A stretch of 64,000 bases of DNA, from the NCBI GenBank assembly GCA_049279335.1, contig JBAPNX010000007.1, forward strand, positions 7,013 to 71,012. The letters run 5' to 3'. Under the pieces are notes generated by a model. The model was not told the origin of the DNA and made no database searches. It saw nothing but the letters and a program-made list of their open reading frames with translations. Position numbers and translations under genes: made by a program. Positions within the stretch are counted from its first letter, which is position 1. Each line of letters opens with the position of its first letter. Positions 1,119-49,256 of the stretch are shown here, piece by piece. The stretch comes from Candidatus Dormiibacterota bacterium (GTDB taxonomy: Bacteria > Chloroflexota > Dormibacteria > Aeolococcales > Bog-877).

Positions 1119-2090
1119 TCAGCCGAACAGGCCGCTGAGATTGCCGTTGGCAGGACTTGCCGCCGCTCCCAGCAGAGGTAAGCCATAGGCTTCCTCGATG
1201 GTCCGGAGGGTGCCGTAGTGGTCTCCGGTCGCTGACACGATCCCTCTTCCTACTGCGTTCTTGGAAATTATCAGCTCCGGGATCTGCCCCCCGACGGCAT
1301 CGCTGCAGCAGCTGCCAGAGGACTGGGCATCGTTCTCGTCCATGGTGACGATCACCGTGCTGCGGTATTGGGTAAACCACGCCGAAGACAGGACGGGCGC
1401 GAGGTTGGTCTGGAGCCAAGAGTTCCCGTCGGATACGGTCCCGTCGTGCATGTCGTCCATCAGGTTGGGAGTAATCCATACAAAGTCCGGGGCGCTGGCG
1501 CTATTGAGGGCAGAGATCAATCCCGAGGGACCCGGGTAGGGCAGCACATGACTGCCGCAGCTCGCGCCGAGAACGTCGGCATAGTGGACGAAGGGGTTGT
1601 GCTTCCCGGCATACTCGCCTGAGCTTGACCCGGTGTAACAAGCCGAGGGCATGGACTCCATATAGGCGATCCACGGGATTCCGCTTACGTTGAACTGGTT
1701 AGCCAGGTTGTCGACTGAGTAGGTGCCGCAGGAATCCGACTCGCAGCCCTGGGTCGACCCGGAGGTGATGGCGAGGTAATTGGGCAGGCTGGGGTGATAC
1801 ACACCGTACCAGTTGTTAGCCGAGGCGTACTCGGACGCCAGTGAGCAGATATAGGGGTCGGCCGAGCAGTCGCCCAGCGTGGCTGCGTATCCCTGGTTCT
1901 CCTCCATGATGATCATGACATGAGGCGCGCCCGAGGCAGCTGTCGGAGTGGGCACCGAGCTAAAAGCTGGAGACGGGCTCGCCGAAGGGCTGGCGGAGGG
2001 GACCCGGTGGCCAACTGCACTACAGCCCACCATCACGGCACCAGCGACGAGACTAAGGGCAAGCGCCACGCCGCTGGGACGGGTCAGCAC
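1119..2090 (-). CDS. Phosphoesterase family protein (acid phosphatase / non-haemolytic phospholipase C family), lipoprotein
   Basis: 323 aa; lipobox 'MVGCSA'; motifs 'IIMEENQ', 'HPSLPNY', 'NLMDDMHDG' typical of the PF04185 phosphoesterase family. Confidence 0.7.
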   Translation of the reverse strand: MLTRPSGVALALSLVAGAVMVGCSAVGHRVPSASPSASPSPAFSSVPTPTAASGAPHVMIIMEENQGYAATLGDCSADPYICSLASEYASANNWYGVYHPSLPNYLAITSGSTQGCESDSCGTYSVDNLANQFNVSGIPWIAYMESMPSACYTGSSSGEYAGKHNPFVHYADVLGASCGSHVLPYPGPSGLISALNSASAPDFVWITPNLMDDMHDGTVSDGNSWLQTNLAPVLSSAWFTQYRSTVIVTMDENDAQSSGSCCSDAVGGQIPELIISKNAVGRGIVSATGDHYGTLRTIEEAYGLPLLGAAASPANGNLSGLFG

Positions 2091-2340
2091 TGGCGAATTA
2101 TGGTCCAGGCGCAGTTCACCTGACCGAGGCGCTGCACCGGCTACTCGTCTGGGGTTGGGGAAGCGGGAGCGCTAAGACGCAGACGCGCTAGCCTTGTGGC
2201 TGTCACCGTGGCGACCTACGCAAGCCCCGGCGCGGAATTCTAAACTGATGGCTACATGGGACGTGGGTGCCAGTCCCGACGGATTTCCTTTGGGACCGGC
2301 CAAACGCTACCTCGGCTGATCTAGCGGTCATCGCGCCCAG

Positions 2341-2570
2341 ATGCACCCCATTTCGGAGCGGTCGGCCTCCCGCGACCGCCCAGGTTTGACAGCCTAAGTG
2401 ACGGCCTGGCGAGCGGACGACTGGCTCATGGGATGGACGCGACTGGACGGCGATCGGGCAAATCGATCTCACACTGAACGTCTGCGGGCGTGGCTGGACG
2501 ACCTCCCCTAAACTTGCAAACGGCTGGGGCCGCAAGGCTCCTCGGGGTTCGAATCCCCGTCCCTCCGCCA
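2341..2570 (+). ncRNA. tmRNA-like structured RNA (partial or divergent ssrA) ending in tRNA-like T-arm + acceptor + CCA
   Basis: 3' end 'CTCGGGGTTCGAATCCCCGTCCCTCCGCCA' is a canonical T-stem/T-loop (GGTTCGAATCC) plus 7-nt acceptor strand, discriminator and CCA. Upstream there is a short reading frame ending '...GLTA*' followed by 'TAAGTGACGGCCTGG', which resembles the post-tag region of actinobacterial tmRNA as I recall it ('TAAGCGACGGCTAG'), plus a downstream 'GCGACTGG..GATCGG' block. No 5' acceptor partner (GGRGGGR) was found. Confidence 0.4.
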
Positions 2571-2976
2571 TCTTGTGGGGTATAGCGTTGGTGGTGGAAG
2601 TAGCACACTCGGATCGTCCTTCCGCGCCTGGCGACTACGTGGACGTGAGGTGTGCAGCTCGCCCGACCTCTATCGTCAGGTGTTCTTGGTCCCACCACTT
2701 CACGCCGGTGCTACCCGCCAGCCTGACGCGGCAACAAGTGAACCCGCTCGGAGCGACGCAGATGGCTCTCGGAGCCCCATAGTGGGCCCGTGCCGCCACT
2801 ACCTCCTGAATGGCGGGACTCCACATCGCTGCCCCAGTGCTTAGCCTGGACCGCAATGGCGTGATCGGTCCCTCCATCAACCACAACGTCCGCGCCGAAG
2901 TCCTCGCTACGCGGCGTGGTCTCGACCCGTTCGTGACCCAGGGCGAGACAGAATCCCGCCAGGTGGAGGCAGCCTC

Positions 2977-3948
2977 ATGAGAGCAGTAGTCTTCGACAAA
3001 TACGGGCCTCCGGAGGTTCTGCGCCTCGAGGAGGTCGAGCCGCCTGTGCCGAGGGATGACGAGGTGCTGGTCAGGATCCACGCCGCGACGGTCAGCCGCA
3101 CGGATACCGGGCTTCGCGGCGCCGACTTGTTCATCTCACGCCTTGTCACGGGTCTCCTCCAGCCCAGGCGCAGGATCCTGGGCAGCGACTTGGCCGGGGA
3201 AGTCGAGGCGGTCGGCGCAACAGTGACCGAATTCGAGGTCGGTGACCACGTATTCGGCCTCAATCCCTGGAAGTTCGGCACCCATGCTGAGTTCGTCTGC
3301 ATGCGGGCGAGCGCGGCACTGGGGCTCATGCCGTCCGATATGAGCTTCGATGAGGCGGCAGCGATCTGCGACGGGGCGATCCTGGCGCTGAATGCCCTAA
3401 GGCCGGCAGAACTTCGACAGGGGCAGAGGATCCTCGTGTATGGCGCCTCCGGATCCATCGGCACCGCTGGGGTCCAGCTGGCCCGAGCCTTCGGCGCCGA
3501 CGTCACCGCGGTGTGCAACACGAAGAACTTCGAGCTTGTGAGATCGCTGGGAGCCGACGAGGTCATCGACTTCACGCAGGAAGACTTCACCAGGAATGGC
3601 CGAACGTACGACGTCATATTCGACTCAGTCGGCCACCAATCGTTCAAGCGGTGTCGGGCCTCACTGAAGCCAGGCGGGTTTTACGTTGCCACCGACCACA
3701 TGTACAACCTGGTGCTCGCCTTGTGGACCGCGCGGATCGGAGACAAGCGAGTGGTGTTCCCCCTACCGCCGCGCTTTACGAAGGAGGACGTCGCGTTCCT
3801 CAAGGAGCTAATCGAGGCGGGGAAATACCGAGCCGTCATCGATCGGCGATACCCGTTGGAGCAGGTGGTTGAGGCAACCCGCTACGTCGAAACGAAGCAG
3901 AAGATCGGAAACGTCGTTCTGACTGTCAGCCACGACAATGCGACCTGA
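2977..3948 (+). CDS. NADPH:quinone oxidoreductase / zinc-type alcohol dehydrogenase (MDR superfamily)
   Basis: 323 aa; 'MRAVVFDKYGPPEVLRLEEVEPPVP' N-terminus, Rossmann 'VYGASGSIGTAGVQLA', typical zeta-crystallin-like architecture; RBS-like GGAGG upstream. Confidence 0.85.
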   Translation: MRAVVFDKYGPPEVLRLEEVEPPVPRDDEVLVRIHAATVSRTDTGLRGADLFISRLVTGLLQPRRRILGSDLAGEVEAVGATVTEFEVGDHVFGLNPWKFGTHAEFVCMRASAALGLMPSDMSFDEAAAICDGAILALNALRPAELRQGQRILVYGASGSIGTAGVQLARAFGADVTAVCNTKNFELVRSLGADEVIDFTQEDFTRNGRTYDVIFDSVGHQSFKRCRASLKPGGFYVATDHMYNLVLALWTARIGDKRVVFPLPPRFTKEDVAFLKELIEAGKYRAVIDRRYPLEQVVEATRYVETKQKIGNVVLTVSHDNAT

Positions 3949-3989
3949 CGGCCTTCCCTTCTCGCTCTGGTGGATGACTCCGAGCGTGT

Positions 3990-4145
3990 AGCTCGCGGAT
4001 TTTACGGCCTAAGCGACGGCCTAGCGAACGGACGGGTAGCTGAGGCAGGGACCCCACTGGACGTCGATCGGGCCCCGTCGATCTCAATTTGCATGTCGCT
4101 GGAAGGGTCTGGACGACTTCCCCTGAACTTAAAAACCAGGTCCAC
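3990..4145 (+). repeat. Second copy of the tmRNA-like ~150-nt element (copy B)
   Basis: Shares with 2385-2530: '...TTTTACGGCCTAAGCGACGGCCTAGCGAACGGACG...CCACTGGACGTCGATCGGGCCCCGTCGATCTCA...CTGGACGACTTCCCCTGAACTTAAAAAC' (blockwise ~70-80% identity, same order). Confidence 0.4.
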
Positions 4146-4793
4146 TCACGTGCATATGTCCGGGATGCTCTGCTTTGTCACCCTGCCAGCTCGGATCACG
4201 GAGTCGTCCAGGGCTCGACGCTACTCGCCGCCGCGTAGTGGCGCCTCAGCACATAGCGCCCGGGTTTTAGGTCGAACTGGTGGCTCTGGTGGGCGGCGAC
4301 GGACTCAGACGCGACCAGTTCCCTGGGAAACAGAAACGAGACGCCTGCGCCCGGATTAGGGATCGACTTCACTGTTCCCCGCAGCACAGTAGCCGCCCCG
4401 GCGACGAAGCCCTAGCCTTTCGCTACTGGGAGGCCTGAGCAATCATCGATACCTCCCACAACCACTCCTCGCCGGTCGGGACATTGGCTGGGATCGAAAG
4501 GGTCTCGCGTGCCTGGCAGCCGACCAACGCCAACACTGGGCCAGCTAGAAGGACAGCGCGCCACCATCCGCTACCGGCTGAGCGCCACGCCATTGAGCGC
4601 CGGATGCCTTGCCGAGTCCGATATACCGTCTAAAAGTATGCTGCTAGCCAGCCGGGAGGTTACGCTCACAGTTCCGGTTCCGCGGTTGTGAAAACGGGCG
4701 GAGCGACGAGCCGTGCTGACCTGGTCGGCAGTCAGCCAGACCAGGCTGAAGAATTCGTGCGTGTCCCGAAGGATTCCCTTTGGGGCCACTCCC

Positions 4794-5138
4794 TCAGCCG
4801 AAGAGCTGCACACTTTGAATCAGTCCGTCCGCGACTCGGTACGCCGCGGCTGCATGCACCTCGGTTGGCATACCGGGCAGGCCGAAACCGGTGATGAACT
4901 CCTCGTCGAGGACAAACGGACCCACCTCGATCCGAGCACGGATCTCGGCATGCAACTTAGGGCTCTGCCCGAATAGCTCGCCATAGCGAGCGCGGATCTC
5001 AGTCTGTCCATCGGCTAGCAAGCTTCCGTCCGGCTGAGAAATCCGGGCGTCGGCAGAGTAGCAGGCGACGAATGCGTCGAGAAGGCACAGATTGTAGGCA
5101 GCGATCTGTCGGTCGACCAGCTCAGTCGCTTGGCTCAT
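4794..5138 (-). CDS. NTF2-like / SnoaL-like small protein
   Basis: 114 aa, no TM; size and composition of ketosteroid-isomerase-like fold proteins; flanked by ~35-bp direct repeats. Confidence 0.45.
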   Translation of the reverse strand: MSQATELVDRQIAAYNLCLLDAFVACYSADARISQPDGSLLADGQTEIRARYGELFGQSPKLHAEIRARIEVGPFVLDEEFITGFGLPGMPTEVHAAAAYRVADGLIQSVQLFG

Positions 5139-18804: not shown

Positions 18805-19734
18805 CTACAGGGGTGACGTCCACCGGCGCCTACGGATGGTCGCGACCACGGCGCCCGCTCCCAGTAGGACCAGGCCACCGATGACCAGGAGCGCGCCGCC
18901 CTCGGTTCCCCCCGCGCCCGTGGTCGGCGTGCCGGTCCCGGGGCTCGGAGTTGGCGTGGGCGCCGCGAGGGCCGCAATGCAGGCCGATGCGTTGATGTGG
19001 TCATCGATGAGGGTGACGTCGCCGTTTCGCGCCAGCACCCTACCGTCCACCGTGACCGCTGAGCCGACTGTGATCGAGGTCAAGGCCAGGACGTTGCCCG
19101 CAAAGGTTGGGCCGTCCAGAGCCGCCGAGCTACCCACCTGCCAGAAGACGTTGCACGGCGAGGCGTCGTCGATCAGGGACACGGTGCTGCTCGTCCCGGT
19201 GGTCAGGCTCGATCCGGTCTGAAAGACAAAGACTGCGTCAGGGTTACCCTCCCCGTCCAAGGTGAGCGCGCCGCTGAGGCTGAGGGCGCCATCCGAGCTC
19301 GTCTGGTAGACGCCCGGATCCAGGGTCAGCCCGGTGAGATCGGCCGGCTCCGTCGTGGCAGACCCCTCTCCGGTAGCCGCCTGGTCGTAGGCAGTGGTCA
19401 GGTCGTTCTGGGCATCCAGCGCTACTCCATCCGCCGTGTAGGTGGTGGAAGGTGGCTCGACGATGGCCGGTGGGAAGCCCGTGACCGAAGCATCAGGGTC
19501 GACGCCCACGTCCCCAGAGATTGTGGTATTTCCGGTGCTCGTGACTGAGGTGCCCGCCAAAACTGCGAAGGGCGCGGCAGTCGCCAGATTAACAGCGGTA
19601 GCCGCCGCCGCGGAGATTCCCCCAAAGAGGGTCAACGCCGCGGCGAGCCCTAACGCGACAGCTGCTCCAGACCATCGGCGCACTCCCACCGCGCGCAGGC
19701 TTGGTCTAACGTTTCGCCGCAGCGTAGTAGCCAT
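18805..19734 (-). CDS. Secreted DUF3494 (ice-binding-like fold) protein with C-terminal membrane anchor
   Basis: 'LATAAPFAVLAGTSVTSTGNTTISGDVGVDPDASVTGFPP' DUF3494 signature; signal peptide; C-terminal Pro/Thr-rich linker + TM + RRRR tail. Confidence 0.6.
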   Translation of the reverse strand: MATTLRRNVRPSLRAVGVRRWSGAAVALGLAAALTLFGGISAAAATAVNLATAAPFAVLAGTSVTSTGNTTISGDVGVDPDASVTGFPPAIVEPPSTTYTADGVALDAQNDLTTAYDQAATGEGSATTEPADLTGLTLDPGVYQTSSDGALSLSGALTLDGEGNPDAVFVFQTGSSLTTGTSSTVSLIDDASPCNVFWQVGSSAALDGPTFAGNVLALTSITVGSAVTVDGRVLARNGDVTLIDDHINASACIAALAAPTPTPSPGTGTPTTGAGGTEGGALLVIGGLVLLGAGAVVATIRRRRWTSPL

Positions 19735-19989
19735 CAAGTTGCCTCCAGGGATGGGGCTCGAGGCTAGTCGCGCTCTCTCGTCTCGGACCAGGCTCACATT
19801 TGGCGCCTGCTATAAGAATGGACTTCCTGGAGCGGGCGTCGGTCCGCCAGCGTACTGACGCATTCCCTGGCACCTTCAGCGTCAGGCGTCCGTTGCCCAC
19901 ACGTCACACCCCCAAGCTCGGCCCGGAGTGATCGCGGACTGCCCGTGTGGCCAGGTGGTGCCCGCCAACCAGATACTGCGCCGGACTCG

Positions 19990-37802: not shown

Positions 37803-39794
37803 TCAGCTGCCCGGATGCCAGGCGATGCTGATGGCGATCCCCGCCACCAAAAGGAGGCCGAAGCTCGCGTGCAGCTGGGCCGTCTCGAGGTCGATCTTGG
37901 CGATAGCCCGCTGCTGCCCGGCGGCGCCCAGCTCGGAAGCGTTGAGGGCGCGCACTAAGAGTGGCAGGGAGAGCAGCGCCAGCAGGCTGAGACGGGGCAG
38001 GACACCGATCGCGACGGTTATCGCCAAGGCGATGAAGGCTCCTACCAGCAGGACCACGTAGAGGCGGTAGGCGAACCTGCGCCCAACCCGGATCGAGACC
38101 GTGCTGATCCCCGCCCGAGCGTCCTCGCCGATGTCGCGCCATTCGTTCCCGTGGAGGATGGCTGTGACCAGGAGCCCGATAGGAACGCTGACTGCGCCGG
38201 CCTCCCCGGAAAGGTGGCCGGTGATGGCGAAATAGGCTCCCAGCACCATCAGCGGACCCATCAGCAGGAAGACCAGGGGCAGACCAGCTGCCCGGTACTT
38301 GTACTGCAGTGGCGGCGCCGTGTAGCCCCAGCCCCCGATCAGGCCGACGGCTCCGATCACTGCCAGCGGCCAGCCGCGCACGGCGATCAGCACCACGCCT
38401 ATGAGGACTGCAATAAGGAATGCCGAGCCGGCTAGGACGAACGCCTCCCGCTCCCGGACCCTGCCGGTAAGCAGAGCCTGGCTTGCCCTCGGGGACGTGA
38501 TGGCATCAACTCCTTTGCGCACGTCATAGATCTCGTTGGTCACATTGGTGCCGACCTGGAGTAGCACTGCCCCGACCAGGACCAGGGCGAAAAGGGGCCA
38601 GCCGAACTGGTGGTGAACGGCCGCGAGGGCGGCAGCTGCCGAGACCGGCACCACCGAGGCGGTGAGGGCAAAGGGACGGGTGACCTCGACCCAGCCCCGA
38701 AGCCGGCGGACGAATCCAACGCCCTGGCCAGAGTCGATCGCCCGTCGCTGACGCGATCCGGGGGCCGTCCCCAAGGCCCCGGCCGAGCCATAAAGCACCG
38801 CCGCATCGAGCACGGCCTCCACCTGGGCATGCTCCTGAACCACCGGCTGCAGGACGGGAAGATCCATCCCAGCTTGGTTGAAGCGCTCGGCACCCGCTGC
38901 CACCTCCTCTCGGGTGCCGCAGAGCAGGAAGGCGTCCACCAGTTCGTCCGGGATCAGCTGGGCTGCACGGTGGTAGTCCTCGGCTCTCCAGGCGGCCATG
39001 ATCGGTCCGCGCAGGGCCGGGTCCATCCCGGCCCTGCGCATGGCGACGTCAGTCTGGACCGCGAGCATGTAGATGGCAAAGGGTTCGCGCTTAGCCCGAT
39101 CGAGGGCCGCACGGCGGCTGCTGTCGATGAGCGACAGCAGATAGCCCCCGATCGCGATCGAATCGGGATCCCGCCCGGCCGCGGTCGCCGCCGCCTTGAT
39201 CCGTCTAGATGCCAGCGCCACAGCCTCGATCGGCTCGGCCGGTCTGGCCAGATAGCCGTCAGCCACCCTTCCCGCCAGCTCGTGGAAGGCCCGGCGATAC
39301 CCCGCGGCCCACAGCGGTACCTGGTGCACCGGCGGGAACATTGGCTCGAGCTCAGGTACGCCTTGGGCTCCCAGAGCCAAGCGCTCACCTCGCCACAGCC
39401 GCCGCAGTTCGAGCATGGTCTGCTCGACTTTGGCTATCGCCGGCTCGGGCTGGTAGGGGATCCCCATCTGCGCTAGTCGCAGCGGCAGCGCGGTACCCAA
39501 GGCCAAGGTGATGCGTCCAGGAGCCAGGTCATCGAGGGCACTGATGGTCATAGCCAGCAGCACCGGGTGGCGGGTGCTGGGGTTGAGCGCACCCAGGCAG
39601 ATGCGCAGCCGCGGCACCGTGGTGGCGACCGCGGTGGCGTAGGTGACGGCATCTCGGGCGAAGTAGGACTCGTGGAACCAGAGCGAATCCACTCCAGCCC
39701 GCTCCGCCAGCTCGGCCTGGCGAATCGCATCGCGAACCTCACCCTGGGCGTTGAGTCCCAGACCGACCGGCCGCGCCAGCGAAGGCATCGTCAC
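37803..39794 (-). CDS. Fusion: luciferase-like (LLM, probable F420/flavin-dependent) oxidoreductase + MenA/UbiA-type polyprenyltransferase
   Basis: N-terminal ~330 aa LLM TIM-barrel; C-terminal 8-9 TM domain with 'NEIYDVRKGVD' (MenA N(D/E)xxDxxxGxD) and 'EWRDIGEDARAG' second Asp-rich motif. Confidence 0.7.
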   Translation of the reverse strand: MTMPSLARPVGLGLNAQGEVRDAIRQAELAERAGVDSLWFHESYFARDAVTYATAVATTVPRLRICLGALNPSTRHPVLLAMTISALDDLAPGRITLALGTALPLRLAQMGIPYQPEPAIAKVEQTMLELRRLWRGERLALGAQGVPELEPMFPPVHQVPLWAAGYRRAFHELAGRVADGYLARPAEPIEAVALASRRIKAAATAAGRDPDSIAIGGYLLSLIDSSRRAALDRAKREPFAIYMLAVQTDVAMRRAGMDPALRGPIMAAWRAEDYHRAAQLIPDELVDAFLLCGTREEVAAGAERFNQAGMDLPVLQPVVQEHAQVEAVLDAAVLYGSAGALGTAPGSRQRRAIDSGQGVGFVRRLRGWVEVTRPFALTASVVPVSAAAALAAVHHQFGWPLFALVLVGAVLLQVGTNVTNEIYDVRKGVDAITSPRASQALLTGRVREREAFVLAGSAFLIAVLIGVVLIAVRGWPLAVIGAVGLIGGWGYTAPPLQYKYRAAGLPLVFLLMGPLMVLGAYFAITGHLSGEAGAVSVPIGLLVTAILHGNEWRDIGEDARAGISTVSIRVGRRFAYRLYVVLLVGAFIALAITVAIGVLPRLSLLALLSLPLLVRALNASELGAAGQQRAIAKIDLETAQLHASFGLLLVAGIAISIAWHPGS

Positions 39795-39905
39795 CTCCTA
39801 CGGGAGCTCGGGTCCTTGCGTCTACAAGAAACCGCGGCTCCATGCCGTCGAGGTGAAGGGTAGTTGGTACAGGCCTCCGACTACCTGTCCCGCGAAGCTC
39901 CGGTC

Positions 39906-40550
39906 TCAGTCCAGGAACACCACCAGAGCGGTCCGGTCGTCGCGCTTGCGGGCAATCTCCACCAGCCTCTCCGCCGCGAGCTGGGGATTATATGCGCGAA
40001 CGGCCAATCCCAGCTCGGCCTCACTGAGGAGGTCGGGGGCGAAATCGCCGGTGATGCCGTCCGTCACCAACAGCAGTTTCTCCCTGGGCCCCAGTCGGAG
40101 GCGGCCCCGCTGAGGCGCCACCTGCCCGCCGCCACGACCGGAGCCTAGCCCAAGAGCGTTGAAGAGGACGTTGCCCTCGCCTTCGTCGACGGTGGCTTGC
40201 ACTGGGGCGAGGTCGTGCAAACTCTGGCGGTAGAGGCGGGAATCGCCAACCGATACATAGAAGAGATCGCTGCCCACGATCCGGGCCAGGGTCGCAGTGG
40301 TTGCCCCCAACTCCCTGTGCGCGATTTGCGCGTCCGCGCGCTCGCATCCCTCCACCAGCGCCTCCAGAGGTGGCAACCCGGCGGTGCGGCAGACCTTGGC
40401 GATGGTCTCCGCCGCCAGTTGTGCGGCCTCACCGCTGCGACGGTACTCACCCACGCCATCGAACACTCCGAACAGGCTGAGCTCGTGATCGATCAGGGAT
40501 CGATCCTGGTGATGGACTGGCCTTTCGGCTAATCCCACGCGAAGGTTCAA
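39906..40550 (-). CDS. PP2C-family Ser/Thr protein phosphatase
   Basis: 'FGVFDGVG', 'VGDSRLY', 'LLVTDGI' PP2C metal-binding motifs. Confidence 0.8.
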   Translation of the reverse strand: MNLRVGLAERPVHHQDRSLIDHELSLFGVFDGVGEYRRSGEAAQLAAETIAKVCRTAGLPPLEALVEGCERADAQIAHRELGATTATLARIVGSDLFYVSVGDSRLYRQSLHDLAPVQATVDEGEGNVLFNALGLGSGRGGGQVAPQRGRLRLGPREKLLLVTDGITGDFAPDLLSEAELGLAVRAYNPQLAAERLVEIARKRDDRTALVVFLD

Positions 40551-40807
40551 CGGTGTGCTCCTCTGCCCACCTCAGCCGGCCATTTTGCGCCGAAAGCCGA
40601 TGCCACCAGCCGGTGGACGGGTTCGAGTCGGCGCGAAGATCTGAGCAGTCCAAGCTACGACGTTGGCCGCAGGCAGAAGGAGATGACCGAACCGTCAGGC
40701 AACTTATCTATTGGCGCACAAACTGTTGCCGGTCCGTGACAGCCCCCGACGCTTTTGGTGGTAAACATTTCGCCTAGATAAGTCACCAAACGATACACGG
40801 AGCCACA

Positions 40808-41326
40808 ATGAAAGTCGGGGAAGGTCGGGGCTATCGCAGGAAGTTCGCGCTGGCAGCGTTGGCGGCAGTCATCGCCGCGGGTGGCATGGTTGCGTTCGCC
40901 TTCTTCACCGCGGCTGGAACGGGAACTGGCAATGGCGTCGTCGGAACCTCGACTGCATGGCTCGTCAGTTCATCGGCCCACACTGGCGGCCCACTCTATC
41001 CCGGGTCGGGGAGTGAGAGCATTCCCTTCACGGTCACCAACCAAAGCCCCGGCAACCAGGCACTGACTTCGATCACATCTGCCCTGACCACGGACGGCGC
41101 AGGTGGCGTCTATGACGTAAATACCAGCAGCTTCAACGATGCCTGCCTGGCGAGCTGGTTCACCGTGACCAATACCACTCCGACCCTCCCCGACGATCTC
41201 GCTGGCACTGCTCCTGGGCCGGCTGGGACTTACGGTGGCACAGCCACGCTCACCATGCAGGACTTTCCGATGAGCCAAAATGCCTGCCAGGGAGTCGATC
41301 CGCAGATCACCATCACCGTCAACTGA
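40808..41326 (+). CDS. Small secreted/anchored Cys-pair beta-rich protein (possible TasA/camelysin-like class), paralog 1
   Basis: RBS ACGGAG; N-terminal 'RRKFALAALAAVIAAGGMVAFAFFTAAGTG' signal/anchor, 'FTVTN' motif and two conserved Cys ('NDACLAS', 'NACQG'). Confidence 0.55.
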   Translation: MKVGEGRGYRRKFALAALAAVIAAGGMVAFAFFTAAGTGTGNGVVGTSTAWLVSSSAHTGGPLYPGSGSESIPFTVTNQSPGNQALTSITSALTTDGAGGVYDVNTSSFNDACLASWFTVTNTTPTLPDDLAGTAPGPAGTYGGTATLTMQDFPMSQNACQGVDPQITITVN

Positions 41327-41549
41327 CCTGCGGCCAAGGATCGAATTGATCGCGTGGGATGCGACAAGCCACTTCCCTGGCCCAGAGACCTGGGCCAACA
41401 AGCGTGAAGCGAATGGGTGTGGGCACGATGACGTGCAAGAGGTCGCCTACTCTTACATGTGCGCTGACCGTCGGTAGATCTGGACCGGCACTTCAGTGTG
41501 GGCGGGACTGGCCTGAGCCCCACTCTCGGCAGCTCAGGGCCGCTCCTCT

Positions 41550-42020
41550 GTGACATTGCTTCGCGTAAATCAGCAGCCACGGGCCTTGGGGATCCTGGAG
41601 AGGATCGCGCTAGCGCTTGGGGTTGGAGCAGCCATCTGGTTGGCCCTGGGCCTGACCAGGGCCACCAGTTTCACCATCAGCAGCACGGTCACCAGCTTGC
41701 CAGCATGTAGGTCGAGCGCTTTGTTCTACCCCGGCGTTCCCCGATGCCTGACGTACACGGTGACCAACCCCAATGCGTATCTGATCAAGATCACCCGGCT
41801 GTCGCTGGATCGGGTCGTGTCATCGGCAGCCTCCACTTGTCCTGCTTCCAATCTCGATCTCCGCAAGACCAATTTCTCTGGTGCGCTGACGGTGCCAGCA
41901 ACCGGAGCCAAAGCCACATCTGTTCCGATCAACATGCGCAACCAGGGGAATCAGGATCGATGTCGAGGCGCCGTGTTCCGTTTCACCTACACCGTCACGT
42001 TGCTGTACAGAACACCATGA
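41550..42020 (+). CDS. Small secreted/anchored Cys-pair protein, paralog 2
   Basis: Alignable with 40808-41326: 'LFYPGVPRCLTYTVTNPN' vs 'LYPGSGSESIPFTVTNQS'; conserved Cys pair; N-terminal TM. Confidence 0.5.
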   Translation: MTLLRVNQQPRALGILERIALALGVGAAIWLALGLTRATSFTISSTVTSLPACRSSALFYPGVPRCLTYTVTNPNAYLIKITRLSLDRVVSSAASTCPASNLDLRKTNFSGALTVPATGAKATSVPINMRNQGNQDRCRGAVFRFTYTVTLLYRTP

Positions 42021-42039
42021 GTCCCATCGGCGTTCCCAC

Positions 42040-45000
42040 ATGATGCCTTCTGGTCATCCCGATATGAGACTGCATCGGTGGCTAGGCCCACCGTTGCTCG
42101 GTGCGGCCTTCGTCTTGGCGGCAGGTGCTGTCATCGCCTTCTTCCTGGCTCTGGGCGTGGGCTTCGGCAGCGCCGCGGTGGGCACCCTCACCCCCCCGAC
42201 CGCTGTGACGGGAGCACAAACGGCCAATTCGACGGTCGACGTCAGTTGGACCGCTCCCAGTCCACTGCCACCGGGAGGCTCTCTCGACGGCTATTTTGTT
42301 GAGCGGTTTTTGGGCTCGACCCCAAGCAGTGCCTGCGGCAGCTCGCCGACTGCCCTGCTCGCCGGGTCGCTCACGAGCTGCAGCGACACTTCTGTCCCTG
42401 TTGGTACCTACACCTACAGGGTCACCGCCGTCTGGCGTTCATGGTCGGCGACCAGTAGCCCGAGCGGCTCAGTAGCGGTGCTGGCCGCATCCGCGAGCGG
42501 CCTGACGCCGGCGACGGGCACGGTGGGCTCCTCGGCCCAAATTACCGCCCAGCGCTTCGCGGCCAGCTCGGCGCTCACCGTCACCGTAGACGGTAGCGCC
42601 GCGGTCATAACCGCGGGGGGAACTACCGGCGCCAACGGGTCCTCGACGGTGACTTTCACCGTTCCGCCCGTTCCCAACGGCGCCGAGACGGTGATGGTGG
42701 CCGACTCCGCCGGGAACACGGCCACTTCCGCAACCAACTTCACGGTGAGCGCCTCGGCGACCGGCCTGAGTCCATCCACCGGCGCTGTGGGGTCCTCAGC
42801 TTCAATCCTCGCGCAGGGCTTTGCCGCCAACTCGGCCCTGAGTGTGAAGGTGGAGGGAACCGCCGCCACCATCACCGGCGGGGCCAGCACCGGAGCCAAC
42901 GGGTCCTCGACGGTGACATTCGTCCTTCCCGCAGTGCCTCATGGCGCCCAGAGCGTGGCGGTGACGGACGCCGCCGCGAACACCGCCACGTCGACCACGA
43001 ACTTCACCGTCACCGCCTCGGCTGCCAACCTGAGTCCGACCACTGGCAGCGTGGGCACGACCGGGGTCACGATCCTGGCTCAGGGCTTCGTCGCCAATCA
43101 CGCCCTCACCGTGAAGGTCAACGGCACCGCGGCCACGATCACTGCCGGAGGCACCACCGCCACCAACGGTGCGTCCACGGTGACGTTCACCATCCCGGCG
43201 GCGGCCAACGGCTCCGACAGCGTCGTCGTCTCCGATGGGACTAACTCAGCGACCTCAGCGACCAACTTCACAGTGACCGCCTCGGCCACAGCGCTCGCGC
43301 CGAGCAGTGGCGCGGTCGGCGCCTCGGCTACGATCACGGCTCAGGGCTTCGCCGCCAGCTCGGCGCTTGCGGTCACCGTTGGCGGCACCAGCGCCACCAT
43401 CACCTCGGGCGGCACCACCGGGGTTACCGGCTCAGCCACGGTGACCTTCACCATCCCCAGCCTCTTCAATGGCTCCTACGGCGTTGTGGTCACCGATTCC
43501 GCCTCCAACACGGCGACCTCGGCGACCAGCTTCACGCTGACCGCTTCGGCGACAGGACTCAGCCCGGCGACCGGCACCGTGGGAGCTTCCGCATCGATCC
43601 TGGCCCGAGGGTTCGCTCCCAGCTCGGCACTTACGGTCACCGTCGGCGGTACGAGCGCCACCATCACCGCGGGCGGTACCACCGGCGCCAACGGCGCCTC
43701 CACCGTCAACTTCACCATCCCAGCGATTCCGCATGGCGCGCAGTCCGTGGTGGTGACCGACGCCTCGTCCAACTCCGCGACCTCAGCGACCAACTTCACA
43801 GTGACCGCCTCGGCCACAGGGCTCGGCCCCACGGGTGGACCTGTGGGCACGACCGGTGTCACGATCCTGGCCCAGGGCTTCATCGCCAGTCATGCCCTCA
43901 CCGTGAAGGTCAACGGAACCGCGGCCACCATCAGCTCCGGTGGGACCAGCGGCACCAATGGGTCGTCCGCAGTCACCTTCACCATCCCGGTCGTGCCCAA
44001 CGGCGCCCAGGTGGTGACCGCCTCGGACGGCACCAATACGGCGACCTCGGCGACCAACTTCACGGTGTCTGCCTCGGCCAAGGGGCTCACTCCCGCCACG
44101 GGTGCCGTGGGAACTGCCGGAGTCAAGATCACAGCTCAGGGATTTGCCCCGAGTTCGGCCTTGACCGTCAGCGTAGGTGGGGTGAACGCCACTATCACCT
44201 CGGGTGGCACCACCGGTGCCACTGGCTCGGCCACGGTGAACTTCACCATCCCCGCGCTGCCCAATGGGCCCCAGACCGTGGTGGTGTCCGATGCCGCGGC
44301 CAACACTGCGACCTCAGCCACCAACTTCACGGTGAGCGCCTCGGCCACCGGACTCAGCCCGGCAAACGGGGTGGTGGGAGCCAGCGCGCAGATCACAGCC
44401 CAGGGATTTGCGGCCAGTTCCGTCTTGACGGTGACGGTGGGCGGGGTCTCCGCGACGATCACGTCCGGGGGAACCTCGGGAGCCAATGGGTCGTCCACCG
44501 TCAGCTTCGCCATTCCCACGGTGCCCCACGGGACCCAGAGCGTGGTGGTGACTGACGCCTCCTCCGACACGGCCACCTCGGGCACCAACTTCACGGTGAA
44601 TTCGTCGGCCACCGAGCTAAGCCCGTCCAGCGGAGTTGTGGGGACGACTGGAGTCACGATCCTGGCTCAGGGGTTCGTCGCCAGCCATGCGCTCACCGTC
44701 AAGGTCAACGGAACCGCGGCCACCATCACCTCTGGCGGTACCAGCGGCACTAACGGAGCCTCGATGGTGACCTTCACCATCCCCGCGGCTCCCAACGGTA
44801 CGGAGACCGTGATCGTCACCGACGGCTCCAACCCCGCCACTTCCGCCACCACCTTCACTATCTCTGCCACGGCCACTAACCTCAGCCCGAGCAGTGGCGC
44901 GATCGGGTCCAATGCCACCATCACAGCGCAAGGATTTGCGGCCACCTCGGCTCTCACGGTGACCGTCGGAGGCACCTCAGCAACCATTACTGCCGGAGGC

Positions 45001-46194
45001 ACGACCAATGCCAACGGGTCCGCGACGGTGACGTTCACCATCCCGGCCCTAACCCATGGCTCTTACAGCGTGGTGGTGTCCGACGCTTCGGCCGACACCG
45101 CCACCTCGGCGGCCAACTTCGCGGTGACCGCCTCAGCGACCAGCCTCAGCCCGGTCACCGGCGCCATCGGATCCTCGTCTTCAATCCTCGCCCAAGGCTT
45201 CGCTCCCGCATCGACCCTGACCGTGAACGTCGGTGGTACCGCCGCGACCATCACCGCCGGTGGTACAACCGGGGCCAACGGGACCTCCACGGTTTCCTTC
45301 ACCATTCCGACCTTGCCTCACGGTGCTCAGAGTGTCGTGGTGACGGATGCGTCGGCCAACACCGCCACCTCTGCGACCAGCTTCACTGTCACCGGCTCCG
45401 CAACCGGTCTCAGCCCGAGTAGCGGTCCGGTTGGCACGACTGGGGTAACCATCCTGGCTCAGGGTTTCGCGGCCAGCTCGGCCCTCACCGTGAAGGTGAA
45501 CGGGACCGTCGCAACCATCACCGCCGGTGGCACCACCTCAAGCAGCGGTGTCTCGACTGTGACCTTCACCATCCCGGCAGTCCCCCACGGCGCTCAGACC
45601 GTGTCAGTGACCGACGCCTCGGGCGACAGCGCCACCTCGCTGACCAGCTTCACCGTCTCCGCTGCCGCAACCAACCTCACGGTGACCAGCGGCAACGTGG
45701 GCACCTCCGGTGTCAAGATCACGGCCCAGGGCTTCGCAGTCAGCTCAGCTCTGACAGTGACCGTGGGCGGGACCAGTGCCACCATCGCCTCCGGGGGCAC
45801 CACTGGCGCTAATGGGTCGGCGACCGTGAGCTTCACCATCCCCGCCGTACCGAACGGCCCCCAGAGCGTGGTGGTGACGGATGCCTCTGGTAACAGCGCC
45901 AGCTCCGTGACCAACTTCACCGTAACCGCGTCGGCCACCGGACTTAGTCCGGCCAGCGGCGCCGTGGGCAGCTCCGCTCAAATCACCGCGCAGGGCTTCG
46001 CAGACGGCTCGACTCTGACGGTCACAGTGGGCGGGACGGCCGCCACCATCACCGCCGGCGGTACAACCGGCGCTAACGGCTCATCCCCGGTGACCTTTAC
46101 CATCCCAGCCCTCGCCAACGGCTCCTACACGGTGGTGGTGAGCGACGCCTCGGGCGACACTGCCACCTCGCCGAACAAGTTCACTGTTCCCTGA
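42040..46194 (+). CDS. Giant membrane-anchored surface protein: N-terminal TM, FN3-like domain, 14 tandem IPT/TIG-like (~94 aa) repeats
   Basis: 1384 aa; repeats with 'G..G...ITAQGF......V.VGG..A.I......G..TVTFT.P..P.G...V.V' IPT/TIG pattern; Ala/Thr/Ser/Gly-rich; three repeat subtypes cycling. Confidence 0.85.
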   Translation: MMPSGHPDMRLHRWLGPPLLGAAFVLAAGAVIAFFLALGVGFGSAAVGTLTPPTAVTGAQTANSTVDVSWTAPSPLPPGGSLDGYFVERFLGSTPSSACGSSPTALLAGSLTSCSDTSVPVGTYTYRVTAVWRSWSATSSPSGSVAVLAASASGLTPATGTVGSSAQITAQRFAASSALTVTVDGSAAVITAGGTTGANGSSTVTFTVPPVPNGAETVMVADSAGNTATSATNFTVSASATGLSPSTGAVGSSASILAQGFAANSALSVKVEGTAATITGGASTGANGSSTVTFVLPAVPHGAQSVAVTDAAANTATSTTNFTVTASAANLSPTTGSVGTTGVTILAQGFVANHALTVKVNGTAATITAGGTTATNGASTVTFTIPAAANGSDSVVVSDGTNSATSATNFTVTASATALAPSSGAVGASATITAQGFAASSALAVTVGGTSATITSGGTTGVTGSATVTFTIPSLFNGSYGVVVTDSASNTATSATSFTLTASATGLSPATGTVGASASILARGFAPSSALTVTVGGTSATITAGGTTGANGASTVNFTIPAIPHGAQSVVVTDASSNSATSATNFTVTASATGLGPTGGPVGTTGVTILAQGFIASHALTVKVNGTAATISSGGTSGTNGSSAVTFTIPVVPNGAQVVTASDGTNTATSATNFTVSASAKGLTPATGAVGTAGVKITAQGFAPSSALTVSVGGVNATITSGGTTGATGSATVNFTIPALPNGPQTVVVSDAAANTATSATNFTVSASATGLSPANGVVGASAQITAQGFAASSVLTVTVGGVSATITSGGTSGANGSSTVSFAIPTVPHGTQSVVVTDASSDTATSGTNFTVNSSATELSPSSGVVGTTGVTILAQGFVASHALTVKVNGTAATITSGGTSGTNGASMVTFTIPAAPNGTETVIVTDGSNPATSATTFTISATATNLSPSSGAIGSNATITAQGFAATSALTVTVGGTSATITAGGTTNANGSATVTFTIPALTHGSYSVVVSDASADTATSAANFAVTASATSLSPVTGAIGSSSSILAQGFAPASTLTVNVGGTAATITAGGTTGANGTSTVSFTIPTLPHGAQSVVVTDASANTATSATSFTVTGSATGLSPSSGPVGTTGVTILAQGFAASSALTVKVNGTVATITAGGTTSSSGVSTVTFTIPAVPHGAQTVSVTDASGDSATSLTSFTVSAAATNLTVTSGNVGTSGVKITAQGFAVSSALTVTVGGTSATIASGGTTGANGSATVSFTIPAVPNGPQSVVVTDASGNSASSVTNFTVTASATGLSPASGAVGSSAQITAQGFADGSTLTVTVGGTAATITAGGTTGANGSSPVTFTIPALANGSYTVVVSDASGDTATSPNKFTVP
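42460..46190 (+). repeat. Tandem coding repeats: ~282-bp unit x14, organised as an ~846-bp three-unit super-repeat
   Basis: Subtype order (TVTVGG / SVKVEG-or-TVTVGG / 'GVTILAQGFVA.HALTVKVNG') recurs about four times; many antisense ORFs in the track are repeat artefacts. Confidence 0.85.
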
Positions 46195-46354
46195 CGGACC
46201 GCCGCCCCCGCAGCTCAACCTGAGGCGTCTTAGGCAGCGCACCCGTTGTTTGGGCAGGACCGACCCTCGGAATCCTGCTGGACACGCTCATTTCTGCGCG
46301 CGATGAACGATCCACTCAGCGCTGAGCGCTTGGGCAACCTCAAAGGCGAAACTT

Positions 46355-46380
46355 ACTGACCTAATGGCGCGTTAGGTCAG
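46355..46380. promoter_or_regulatory. Perfect inverted repeat CTGACCTAA-tggcgcg-TTAGGTCAG between the giant gene and the next gene (terminator-like hairpin or operator)
   Basis: 9-bp arms with 7-nt loop; no clear U-tract. Confidence 0.35.
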
Positions 46381-46443
46381 GCGTGGCTGCGCCAGAGAGT
46401 GCGAGCATAACTGCGAATTCCGGCAAATTCCGTTCCGCGTAAT

Positions 46444-47427
46444 GTGTCTGAAATGCACCCCGCGCCAGTGCGGCCGCGTTGGTACCGCATCCTATATGTT
46501 ATAAGCCTGTTCGCGACCTTTTCCGGACTGGCAATGGCCGCCGACGTCACCTGGGTGGCCGCTAAAACTCCCGCTTTTCCGTCCCCGACCCAGCAGCGTC
46601 AGCTGTTTCGACAATGGCGAGCGAATCAGGGCTCGAATCTTCTCAATGAGAACCCTGCGCTGGCTGAAGCACTGGGCTCGAGCCAGTACTCCACGGGCGC
46701 ACCAGCGCCCAAGGTCAGCTACGGACGCACCGCTTATTACAAAGTGAGGGTTAAGTCGGCGCCAGACTCTTTGCTGGCGGTGTCCGACGTGACTACGACC
46801 ATCGAAAGCAAAACCACGCGTTCCAGTGTGTTGGTGATCTTCGTACCCTCGTCCAGCGAGCATCGCTGGCTGGACCAGTCGACAGTGGCCATGCCTGCCA
46901 GTCTCGATCTGGGCAAACCCGGCTCCACCCTCAGCGCACCGACGTCATCTGAGGTGAAGAAGCTGTTGACAACACCGACTGCGGCGGTCCAAACGGTGCT
47001 GACAGCGTCCAATGCCGACCTCCAGCAAGGCACGGCGTCGGCCCTTCTCCCCGACCCCTCTTGGTACAGCGCCGAATCGGCCTGGCTTCAGGGCATCGCT
47101 TCCGAGAATGGTGACTACACCACTCAATCCAGTCTCAGTGGCTATCCGATCTATGCGTTCCGCGAACCCTCAGGCGCGGTCATGTCGGTATTCACGTTCA
47201 CCATCAGCAACAGCGAAGAGGAAGGGGAGGGATTCTGGCTAAACACCGCCTTCTTCCCGGGTCAGCCATTGCTCTCCCAAAATGACACCTGGCTCGGCAC
47301 AGTTGCGGTCACAGATCCCCTGCGGAGCAGCAAGAAGGCGCTGTCGATCGCCGGAGCTGACCTGGCCCCAATTGCGGCGACCGGAACCACCCTCTCGGAC
47401 CAAATCATCACCTTCGGCCCTTGGTAG
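46444..47427 (+). CDS. Secreted hypothetical protein (signal peptide)
   Basis: 327 aa; 'LYVISLFATFSGLAMAADV' signal peptide; Ser/Thr-rich. Confidence 0.5.
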   Translation: MSEMHPAPVRPRWYRILYVISLFATFSGLAMAADVTWVAAKTPAFPSPTQQRQLFRQWRANQGSNLLNENPALAEALGSSQYSTGAPAPKVSYGRTAYYKVRVKSAPDSLLAVSDVTTTIESKTTRSSVLVIFVPSSSEHRWLDQSTVAMPASLDLGKPGSTLSAPTSSEVKKLLTTPTAAVQTVLTASNADLQQGTASALLPDPSWYSAESAWLQGIASENGDYTTQSSLSGYPIYAFREPSGAVMSVFTFTISNSEEEGEGFWLNTAFFPGQPLLSQNDTWLGTVAVTDPLRSSKKALSIAGADLAPIAATGTTLSDQIITFGPW

Positions 47428-47518
47428 TCAGCCAGACTGCGAGCTGGGCGAGGGTGTGTAAAAACGCCCCCGAGCTGGTATGGCCGGGGTCCTGTCGACG
47501 TGCCGTCCGGTCCCTAGC

Positions 47519-48217
47519 TCAATCGCCGCCGGGAAGGTGTAGGTACATCGACTGGATCCCTACCCGGCCAGGGCCCCGAAAGCGATTGAAGACCAGTTCA
47601 CCCACACCGGCGAAGATGCCGGTGCGCAATCCGTAGACGGCGGGTCGCATCCGCACCTCCGGGTCCATGTACACCCATCCACCGGGCTCGACATCGATCT
47701 CCTCTCCGGACTCGAGGTGCTTCTCGAAGACATTGCCGAAGCCGTGGAGCCAAACCACGCCGTCGCTGTCCCGAGCCTCGAACCGGTCCACCCAAAAGCC
47801 GTTGTTGCCGAAGAGGTTGTTGCTGAGACCGCGCAGGTGGCTGGCGCTGTAACGCAGCGACGCGGTCGCCGCCAGGAACTGGTGCTCGCGGGCCAGGATG
47901 GCCGCGCCCCGAGGTAGCTCAAGCGGAAACACCTGTCCGGGGGCGTCCCTGGAGAAGGCGATGTCGCCCCGGCCTTTGGCCTCGGTCAGGAAGAGCTGCC
48001 TGCCGGCAACCACCCGCCGCACCGCACCACGGACGGCCTTGAGCTTGATGCTGATCTCTGGTTCCTTCCACAGCACCACGTGGTGTTCGAAGTAGATGGC
48101 CATCGACCCGTCCAGGCTGCAGTGCAGCATCGGCACCAGTTCGCCCTCGATCAGGTAGGTGATCCCGGGGGCAAGACCCTCGCGGACCCGGGTGGGGAGG
48201 ATCTCTGGAGGGTTCAA
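47519..48217 (-). CDS. AIM24/DUF124 (TIGR00266) family protein
   Basis: 232 aa; architecture and 'GE.V.M......G' repeats typical of the AIM24 family. Confidence 0.7.
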   Translation of the reverse strand: MNPPEILPTRVREGLAPGITYLIEGELVPMLHCSLDGSMAIYFEHHVVLWKEPEISIKLKAVRGAVRRVVAGRQLFLTEAKGRGDIAFSRDAPGQVFPLELPRGAAILAREHQFLAATASLRYSASHLRGLSNNLFGNNGFWVDRFEARDSDGVVWLHGFGNVFEKHLESGEEIDVEPGGWVYMDPEVRMRPAVYGLRTGIFAGVGELVFNRFRGPGRVGIQSMYLHLPGGD

Positions 48218-48287
48218 GGTGCAGCTCTCCTGGGCTAGCGCGGGGCTGTGCCAGTATGGTCCGCTACCACGCCGTCCGCTGGCGCGT

Positions 48288-49256
48288 TCAGCGGCCGGGG
48301 ATCAGGACCAGCTTGACGTGAGGCGAGCCTGCCTGCCGGGCCCAGGCCGAGCCGACCGCAGAGAGCGCCATCTCCTCGGTATCGATCCTGATCCGACCTG
48401 CGGCGGCGTGCTCTGCCAGCGCCCGAAAGGCCGCTGTCCGCTTCTCCAGCGGGGTGGCGGGGCTGGCGTGTCCGATGATGGTCAGCTGCCGTCCTCTGAC
48501 CACGGCCGAGGTCAGGGTGGCCTCGGGTCCGGCGCTCTGACCGAGGTGGACGATCCGAGCTGATGGGCCGCACGCGACTGTCGCCGCCATCAGGGGCGGG
48601 CCCCAAAGCGGGTCGAAGACCACATCCAGCGGTCCAAGGGCCGCCGCCTCAAACTCGGCCGCGAGCTCCTCCATGCTCTGTCCAGCGATGGCGACGAGGG
48701 CATCGGCGCCCAGCTCAAGAGTTCGCGCCAACGCCGCGGGGTCGCGGCCCGCCGCCACCACTCTGCCGGCGCCCAGCAGCCGGGCAATCTGGACTGCTAT
48801 CTGCCCCACCGCCCCCGTTGCCCCCAAGATCAGCACCCGCTCGCCGCGGCGGAGACGGACTTTGTCGACGAGCGAGATCCAGGCCGCGATCCCGGCGACG
48901 CCCAATCCCGCCGCCGTCGCCCACGGCAGGTCGTCCGGGATAGGAGTGCAGGCGGCGTCGTTGATGGCCGTCCACTCAGCCAGCCCTCCGCTCTCATCCC
49001 GTAAGACCTCGAATCTGACCCGTCTCCCTTTAGGAGACCGACCATCCTCGACCACCGTACCGGCGCCCTCGCCTCCGGGAACGTAGGGAAGCTTGGGGGC
49101 ACCTCCATAAAAGGTGCCCGACGCAATCCGGAGATCGACCGGGTTGAGTGCCGCGGCCTCGACCCGGATCAGAAGCTGCCCAGGACGCGGAACCGGCCGG
49201 GCGAATTCCCCGTACTTGGGACTGGCCCCATAGCGGTCGATGACCGCCGCCCGCAT
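48288..49256 (-). CDS. NADPH:quinone oxidoreductase (MDR superfamily)
   Basis: From 'MRAAVIDRYGASPKY'; 'ILGATGAVGQIAVQIA' Rossmann; the long N-terminal ORF extension is spurious. Confidence 0.75.
   Translation of the reverse strand: MRAAVIDRYGASPKYGEFARPVPRPGQLLIRVEAAALNPVDLRIASGTFYGGAPKLPYVPGGEGAGTVVEDGRSPKGRRVRFEVLRDESGGLAEWTAINDAACTPIPDDLPWATAAGLGVAGIAAWISLVDKVRLRRGERVLILGATGAVGQIAVQIARLLGAGRVVAAGRDPAALARTLELGADALVAIAGQSMEELAAEFEAAALGPLDVVFDPLWGPPLMAATVACGPSARIVHLGQSAGPEATLTSAVVRGRQLTIIGHASPATPLEKRTAAFRALAEHAAAGRIRIDTEEMALSAVGSAWARQAGSPHVKLVLIPGR

Follow-up and report, generated by a model that had tools for sequence, protein, structure and literature searches.

A three-gene cassette of Dormibacterota and Solirubrobacterales that may encode a strand-donation fibre with exchangeable cargo

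Filaments that are built by strand donation and require no chaperone, usher, sortase or ATPase have recently been recognised in several forms (TasA, archaeal bundling pili, threads, Tafi and cannulae), and filaments of this kind underpin biofilm matrices. Here we describe a cassette of three genes, A, B and C, at positions 40808-46194 of a 64,000-nucleotide stretch of contig JBAPNX010000007.1 from a Candidatus Dormiibacterota bacterium (the whole stretch is hereafter called the window), which we tentatively propose as a further case. TasA carries Phe at P2', is cleaved poorly by LepB and needs SipW (PMC10269814). Its partner TapA has an Ig fold that is already complete and gives its N-terminal strand away (PMC10151520). 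In the archaeal bundling pili (ABP), AbpB has been proposed to supply the first strand, with its distal domains serving as an adhesin, and no dedicated peptidase is found nearby (PMC9245690). In Tafi, the major pilin is accompanied by separate tip and anchor proteins (PMC12337348). The host lineage, Dormibacterota, has been placed with Chloroflexota inside Terrabacteria (bioRxiv 10.1101/2020.07.15.205187).

The earlier note on this DNA had described four co-directional genes, and an open reading frame (ORF) check found all four on the plus strand. Their features, with the evidence used for each, are the following.

40808-41326, plus strand: gene A (product P1), 172 residues; leader, N-terminal motif and acidic, disulfide-bonded beta-sandwich (ORF, homologs, AlphaFold2 (AF2) model)
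40808-40900, plus strand: A leader, residues 1-31; basic n-region, 19-residue hydrophobic core and A29-F30-A31 at -3/-1 (column counts over 55 representatives)
40901-40948, plus strand: A N-terminal motif, residues 32-47, FFTAAGTGTGNGVVGT (column counts, AF2, homology to the C N-terminus)
40949-41323, plus strand: A beta-sandwich, residues 48-172, with the GGPLYPGSGSE..TVTN block, C113 and C160
41550-42020, plus strand: gene B (product P2), 156 residues; hydrophobic leader and A-like beta-sandwich, lacking the motif of A and C (hhalign, hmmsearch)
42040-46194, plus strand: gene C (the giant), 1384 residues; leader and motif, FN3-like module and 14 TIG repeats (ORF, Pfam, hhalign)
42040-42186, plus strand: C leader (residues 1-33, ending V-I-A) and motif (residues 34-49, FFLALGVGFGSAAVGT) (hhalign, alignment)
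42193-42480, plus strand: C FN3-like module, residues ~52-147, with the Cys pair C99/C114 (conservation in 13 large proteins)
42484-46191, plus strand: C tandem IPT/TIG repeats, 14 x 88-89 residues (264-267 nt), residues 149-1384 (Pfam, Tandem Repeats Finder (TRF))
46444-47427, plus strand: gene for P4, 327 residues, with a plausible signal peptide (ORF)

The observation that carries our proposal is a combinatorial pattern of homology among the three cassette proteins. A and C share the leader and motif only, A and B share the sandwich only, and B and C share nothing. The three genes make up a cassette that recurs in two phyla and has no database annotation. The finding is more general than the earlier note held: instead of an operon of four genes, it is a cassette of three whose cargo can be swapped.

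P1, which is 100% identical to a protein from a Candidatus Dormiibacterota metagenome-assembled genome (MAG), belongs to a large family: a search of 1.84 billion cluster representatives found 3222 members at E ≤ 1e-3, of which 1489 reach ≤ 1e-10. The family is covered by neither Pfam nor NCBIfam, and P1 itself matched none of their models at E ≤ 1. Columns were counted over 55 representatives, no two of them more than 50% identical. Ala stands at -3 of the leader in 52 of them and at -1 in 54, and the -3/-1 rule predicts cleavage after this Ala-x-Ala. The mature protein would start with Tyr or Phe (55/55), continue with Phe or Trp (53/55) and then Thr. In the positions that follow, small residues prevail: Gly at +6 (50), +8 (49) and +10 (48), Ala or Gly at +12 (47), Val at +14 (49) and Gly at +15 (53). 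The resulting consensus, Y-F-T-S-x-G-S-G-T-G-x-A-x-V-G-T, has a Gly/Ala face strictly alternating with a Ser/Thr face, and no other part of the protein is as well conserved. The AF2 monomer model did not place this motif: the predicted local distance difference test (pLDDT) score is below 50 through residue 43 and averages 56 over residues 41-50, compared with ~85-90 in the sandwich core. A segment that makes its contacts between molecules would be expected to look like this, highly conserved yet without a place in the monomer. Elsewhere in the protein P65, N78 and C113 are invariant, and A29, A31, G37, G46, G66, F118, Q157 and C160 are nearly so. A is acidic in every locus checked (isoelectric point (pI) 4.05-4.4). 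A profile search of the A family against Protein Data Bank (PDB) sequences gave one chance match only, in the leader region.

Two further interpretations of A were considered and set aside. A Tat signal in P1 (RRKF) was rejected, the twin arginine not being conserved across the family. Intermolecular isopeptide bonding of the BsaA type is unlikely, because the family has no invariant Lys. Separately, we observed that an A-type leader, motif and sandwich can be fused directly to C-terminal Vgb_lyase/NHL-type beta-propeller repeats (L001 10001-10900, P0018, P0040, P0056 and P0063); some of these fusions are misnamed "streptogramin lyase" or "SurA N-terminal domain-containing protein" in the source databases.

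The relationship between A and B, which the earlier note had taken to be paralogs, emerged at the profile level only: hhalign gave 93.9% probability (E 1.5e-7), whereas BLASTP of P1 against P2 found no significant similarity. As judged by these profiles, A and B are remote paralogs. The hydrophobic N-terminal segment, the LYPG...TVTN block and the Cys pair noted earlier are indeed present in both proteins, C113/C160 of A being aligned with C97/C138 of B. In local hmmsearch runs the similarity of B to the A sandwich ranged from E 3e-4 (P2) to 2e-11 across loci. B has four conserved Cys, and its sandwich covers residues ~52-149; the sandwich is preceded by an ordinary hydrophobic leader from which the A/C motif is absent, and comparison of B with the leader and N-terminus of C showed no similarity. 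P2, for which 13 close relatives were found, matched no Pfam or NCBIfam model at E ≤ 1. B is basic in 7/9 loci, and the contrast of pI inside the cassette (10.9 for P2, 4.05 for mature P1, 4.96 for the giant) is repeated in most Actinomycetota loci. In several of the latter an A-like domain lies at the C-terminal end of a B of 390-470 residues, behind Ig-like domains.

The N-termini of C (n = 13) matched the A family with 96.4% probability (hhalign, E 1.3e-9) over 46 columns restricted to the leader and motif, and a hidden Markov model (HMM) of the first ~50 residues of the A family matched large proteins in 8 loci. The giant of the window keeps the small-residue register of A (F35, A37, G39, G41, G43, A45, V47 and G48). 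The module that follows is conserved in the 13 large proteins, which come from different loci; W70, Y85, R89, C114, G122 and V128 are invariant, and the signature ...TSC[ST]D..VP.G.YTY.VTAVW.SW.A contains the W, the Y and the Y-x-Y-x-V-x-A pattern. The earlier note had described the module as FN3-like; on residues ~52-147 of the giant, Pfam fn3 (PF00041) falls below threshold (E 0.034; 14.8 bits versus a cut-off of 25).

The remainder of the giant matched Pfam TIG (PF01833) in 14 stretches (173.9 bits versus a cut-off of 20.9; E 6.6e-52), which agrees with the 14 IPT/TIG-like domains counted earlier. TRF reported a period of 264 for the 14 units of 88-89 residues. To call the repeats "nearly identical", as had been done, was an overstatement, since their pairwise identity averages 66% and ranges from 55 to 80%. 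A three-unit super-period is apparent, with 71-72% identity at offsets 3 and 6 and 64-65% at other offsets. The giant terminates at the last repeat (...NKFTVP) and has no C-terminal anchor. Orthologous C proteins bear other passengers, namely Big_13, Big_3_5, Ig-like domains and WD40/lactonase/NHL propellers, and the TIG array is, on these Pfam assignments, variable cargo and not a conserved feature. The giants of close Dormibacterota relatives have 1559 (L002 11037-15716) and 1608 residues (L018 4836-9662) compared with 1384 here, consistent with a changed number of repeats. In a further contig (L003 11233-15388; ENA contig_21926, 99.2% identical to window 40501-47500), two indels break the giant ORF into a 401-residue ORF and a 1166-residue gene call; the repeats may have been misassembled there, or the gene may be a pseudogene of that strain. 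The copy in the window has no such break.

The distribution of the cassette was examined by searching GTDB genomes and JGI metagenomes with patterns, and with HMMs of the P1 family, of its ~50 N-terminal residues and of residues 1-175 of the large proteins. The scans found 30 further loci, 10 in GTDB genomes and 20 in metagenomes. All 10 genome loci belong to MAGs of Solirubrobacterales or unclassified Actinomycetota. The 20 metagenome loci bear no taxonomic label, and 4 of them are near-identical (84-88%) Dormibacterota relatives. With the local HMMs, the order A, B, C was found to recur wherever the contig is long enough: in the Dormibacterota loci L002, L018 and L023, and in the Solirubrobacterales or metagenome loci L007, L010, L011/L033, L012, L015, L016, L028, L030, L034, L037, L039 and L041. 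In L013, L014 and L036 A is followed directly by C, and in L008 C precedes A. Small paralogs paired with a giant, as proposed earlier from this one sequence, are found in both close and distant genomes.

A more distant Dormibacterota contig, L017, delimits the cassette. It is colinear with the window on both sides (its positions 21-2063 correspond to window 38515-40550, and 2335-4896 to 46437-48998), and window 40551-46436 is replaced there by 271 nt (2064-2334), P4 adjoining PP2C. This colinearity indicates that P1, P2 and the giant are gained or lost together, as one discrete cassette of 5.9 kb. Neither flanking repeats, direct or inverted, nor mobility genes were found with the 5.9 kb indel.

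On this basis we propose, with a probability of roughly 40%, that window 40808-46194 encodes a machinery-free strand-donation fibre or stalk in which A forms the shaft, C a strand-only tip or initiator and B a groove-only base. A would be exported and cut after the conserved Ala-x-Ala, exposing a 15-residue strand (Y-F-T-S-x-G-x-G-x-G-x-A-x-V-G) ahead of the acidic disulfide-bonded sandwich, and each A would insert its strand into the sandwich of the next A, so that the shaft would grow by polymerisation. C has the same leader and putative strand, followed by a complete FN3-like domain and the variable passenger (14 TIG domains here); it could therefore only donate a strand and would stand at one end, where, in the manner of TapA or AbpB, it would serve as nucleator or as an adhesin at the tip. 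B has an A-type sandwich, is basic and lacks the strand; it could therefore only accept one and would stand at the other end of the fibre. The B end, probably held on the anionic cell envelope, would be the cell-proximal one, and the fibre would lie at the cell surface.

The combinatorial pattern is, as far as profile comparison can tell, the one that a strand-donation polymer should have if each of its ends is formed by a dedicated subunit, and the assignment of shaft, tip and base to A, C and B is proposed because it mirrors TasA/TapA, AbpA/AbpB and Tafi. The earlier note had called the spacing of the genes tight. This is true of P2 and the giant, which are separated by 19 nt, but not of P1 and P2 (223 nt) or of the giant and P4 (249 nt). 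Across loci, the B-C junction is a 4-nt overlap or a gap of <20 nt and the A-B gap is ~50-220 nt. Such an arrangement, tight between B and C and wider between A and B, suits a high-copy A and equimolar end subunits. The recurrent gene order, the variable passengers of C, the charge difference between A and B, the lack of linked machinery and the joint gain or loss of the three genes also count in favour of a fibre. The domain logic, its conservation in two phyla, the lack of linked enzymes and the gain or loss of the whole cassette are observed; cleavage, strand insertion, polymerisation, polarity and surface location are inferred. The fibre interpretation as a whole is coherent but unproven.

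The cassette resembles the TasA/TapA/SipW system in several respects. A would be a small secreted major subunit, with small-x-Ala at the end of its leader and, beyond it, an aromatic residue and then Phe at P2'. It has a conserved N-terminal segment just past the cut site and an L-x-PG...x-V-x-N block early in its domain, and no chaperone or usher is involved. C, like TapA, combines the leader and N-terminal strand of the major subunit with a different, complete Ig-type fold. The junction AxA|[YF][FW], with its aromatic P2', occurs in 53/55 A representatives, and an aromatic P2' is almost invariable at the A and C junctions. The resemblance of the P1 leader to SipW/TasA-class signals, suggested earlier, is genuine but weak, and the profile matches come from relatives. 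Among the 55 representatives, 4 matched Peptidase_M73 (PF12389) at E ~0.003, with 11-14 bits versus a cut-off of 22.5 and over profile positions 2-49 only, that is, the signal and first mature residues. One of 55 matched TIGR04088 (E 0.0037), and JGI labels the relative P0024 as having a SipW-like signal peptide. The profile check that had been suggested gave no match at E ≤ 1 for P1 with either TIGR04088 or Peptidase_M73; P2 likewise had no match to PF12389 at E ≤ 1, and the gathering score was not reached. A comparison of the A family with a Bacillus subtilis TasA sequence by hhalign was colinear but insignificant (7.9%) and is not used as evidence. The differences from TasA are also clear. 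There is no sipW in the cassette locus or the window. The body of A is an Ig-like, disulfide-bonded sandwich of ~125 residues, in contrast to the TasA jelly-roll of ~230 residues. The cassette adds the groove-only paralog B, and its C bears a very large modular passenger.

TIG domains are a common stalk in adhesins, and the 14 tandem TIG domains of C recall IPT/TIG surface proteins; the cassette differs from these in being defined by the leader and motif, the FN3-like module and the partners A and B. Among archaeal filaments, the AbpA/AbpB pair of Pyrobaculum is similar in placing a pilin gene beside a larger, multi-domain, beta-rich protein proposed as first-strand donor and adhesin (PMC9245690), and processing by a generic signal peptidase, a feature of ABP, may apply to the cassette as well. 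The layout of a major subunit, a tip and an anchor resembles that of Tafi (TafA/E, tip TafC and anchor TafF). Unlike ABP, threads (Saci_0406), Tafi and cannulae, the cassette occurs in bacterial hosts, Dormibacterota and Solirubrobacterales. No sequence or fold link between A and ABP, threads, Tafi or cannulae was detectable, the Gly-rich alternating strand motif of A is distinctive, and there is no isopeptide-type invariant Lys/Asn pair. A shaft of strands and grooves, a groove-only end subunit of the FimH type, and an N-terminal extension with an alternation of small or hydrophobic residues, Gly among them, are reminiscent of chaperone-usher (Fim/Pap) pili; the cassette differs in its monoderm-lineage hosts and in the absence of a chaperone, an usher, an outer membrane and any sequence relationship. 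The signature of a sortase pilus was not found, since the giant has neither LPXTG nor a C-terminal transmembrane segment and Pfam showed no sortase nearby. The class III signal of type IV/Tad pilins is absent from A, in which a basic n-region and a hydrophobic core precede AxA|YF and no Glu stands at +5, and no prepilin peptidase or ATPase was found in the cassette locus. The locus accords with the view of the earlier note that it is no textbook operon: it is an unannotated, conserved surface-protein module unlike sortase, chaperone-usher or type IV pilus operons. A little more tentatively than the fibre itself, we suggest that it may represent an unrecognised class of bacterial strand-donation filament in Solirubrobacterales and Dormibacterota, with a new pilin fold, a Gly-faced donor strand, three genes and swappable cargo, which would extend the TasA/ABP principle.

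Several observations weigh against a fibre. The AF2 model of A has eight strands and gives no sign of an open groove. In the giant of the window the second face of the motif is hydrophobic (FFLALGVGFG) and could simply extend the transmembrane helix. The loci L001/L027, the only ones with two A paralogs and no C, contain A alone. The A-propeller fusions would be no less expected if A were a generic tether than if it formed a shaft with decorations. Finally, all three proteins may be cleaved, which would leave cell attachment unexplained save by the charge of B. Some of these points suit an arrangement in which A, B and C are separately exported adhesins, secreted or at the surface, that form no polymer. 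The leader and motif would then serve as a specialised signal for export or processing, perhaps by a peptidase of the SipW type whose gene lies elsewhere, and the A sandwich a generic tether to the envelope or among the proteins. The absence of any structural sign of an incomplete fold in A agrees with this, as do the direct fusions of A-type N-terminal modules to beta-propeller passengers (P0017, P0018, P0040 and others), the typical adhesin or binding domains carried by C, and the restriction of the TasA resemblance to the signal region. Such a set of adhesins leaves unexplained why the 15 residues past the predicted cut are more conserved than the signal and alternate like a strand, and why a motif-less B stands beside C with coupled translation in most loci; we regard it as unlikely, albeit as an explanation to be taken seriously.

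The hydrophobic motif of the giant favours the idea of a heteromeric complex held in the membrane by uncleaved signal anchors, from which the TIG stalk would be displayed at the surface. The pattern F-x-A-x-G-x-G-x-G-x-A would then mediate small-xxx-small or GxxxG-type helix packing joining A, C and perhaps B. In the window C, the motif is fully hydrophobic (AFFLALGVGFGSAAVG) and prolongs the hydrophobic core to ~35 residues; the giant has no C-terminal anchor, and no peptidase is linked to the cassette. In most A and C proteins, however, the alternate positions are Ser or Thr (FTSSGSGTGAAS), which is unlikely in a membrane, and Ala at -3/-1 in 52-54 of 55 is a signature of signal peptidase I that an anchor does not need. 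We consider this complex improbable. Less probable still is the fibre operon of four genes put forward earlier, with P4 as the secreted partner of the giant. P4 is co-directional, has a plausible signal peptide and follows the giant in close Dormibacterota relatives, but it lies 249 nt downstream of C and persists beside PP2C in L017, where A, B and C are missing. Its homologs are confined to Dormibacterota (14 relatives, 47-100% identity, 324-327 residues), and the A-B-C cassettes of Actinomycetota have no P4. The protein has no Cys, stands beside PP2C and AIM24 in the relative lacking the cassette, and matched no Pfam or NCBIfam model at E ≤ 1; its AF2 model from 13 homologs has a mean pLDDT of 33.5. 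Judged from this distribution, P4 is part of a Dormibacterota-specific backbone and not a member of the cassette.

If the strand-donation reading is true, an unannotated family of >3000 representatives would be a further branch of the strand-donation principle in abundant, uncultured soil lineages, and would reach Dormibacterota, whose cell surface is essentially uncharacterised. It would also supply an annotation rule for thousands of hypothetical proteins (leader/motif plus sandwich, sandwich only, or leader/motif plus cargo), and the modular C would show the exchange of adhesin cargo on a fixed assembly handle. Should the fibre model be wrong, there is still in the cassette a conserved N-terminal signal, for export or for tethering, that merits characterisation.

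The surroundings of the cassette were annotated with Pfam, precomputed for 1-51 kb of the window and completed by our own scan of 52-64 kb, and only housekeeping, regulatory and transport genes were found around it. The upstream neighbours are PP2C, a Bac_luciferase-UbiA fusion, an Rce1-like protease and a Macro-domain protein; those downstream are AIM24, ADH, a SoxE-like protein and ClpS. In agreement with the earlier statement that no sortase, SipW or pilus ATPase is nearby, no signal peptidase (Peptidase_S24/S26), sortase, usher or secretion/pilus ATPase was found by Pfam in the 64 kb window, nor was any signal peptidase, sortase, usher or ATPase found in any cassette locus fetched. Motif scans of the ORFs of the window and ~40 related loci gave no real candidate for the signal peptidase I box SxSMxP, two isolated pattern matches (L015 and L034) falling in spurious ORFs. 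They likewise gave none for the sortase motif TLxTC, since the single match falls within the large protein of L011/L033, in its FN3-like module. As a cassette-specific processing enzyme we considered and rejected the Rce1-like CPBP protease encoded three genes upstream, because it belongs to the backbone shared with L017 and is absent from Actinomycetota loci. Promoter and terminator scans showed no signal above shuffled expectation, the A-B intergenic RNA fold had a z of -1.05, and Rfam had no match in 40-48 kb.

A few other genes in and around these loci may be mentioned. A GerE/LuxR-type response regulator is divergently encoded just upstream of A in L001 (8451-9130) and the P0018 contig (8972-9628) and is not consistent elsewhere, and the window itself has a GerE regulator paired with a GAF-HisKA_3 kinase ~9-12 kb upstream (~28.4-31.6 kb); a regulatory link of GerE to A is possible but inconsistent. 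In L010, from a Solirubrobacteraceae MAG, TadE-like and TadG-like pseudopilin genes (N-terminus ALVEVALVLPILLLILFG...) lie at 976-3524, ~6.5 kb upstream of the cassette, and were not seen in the other loci. The 661-residue ORF at window 37803-39794 (minus strand) joins a Bac_luciferase-type (F420/flavin) oxidoreductase to a UbiA prenyltransferase, and this fusion is kept in L002 and L018. At window 18805-19797 (minus strand), a protein of ~309-330 residues with Pfam Ice_binding (PF11999) is encoded beside a PAS-EAL signalling protein, which is of note for a soil or peat Dormibacterota genome.

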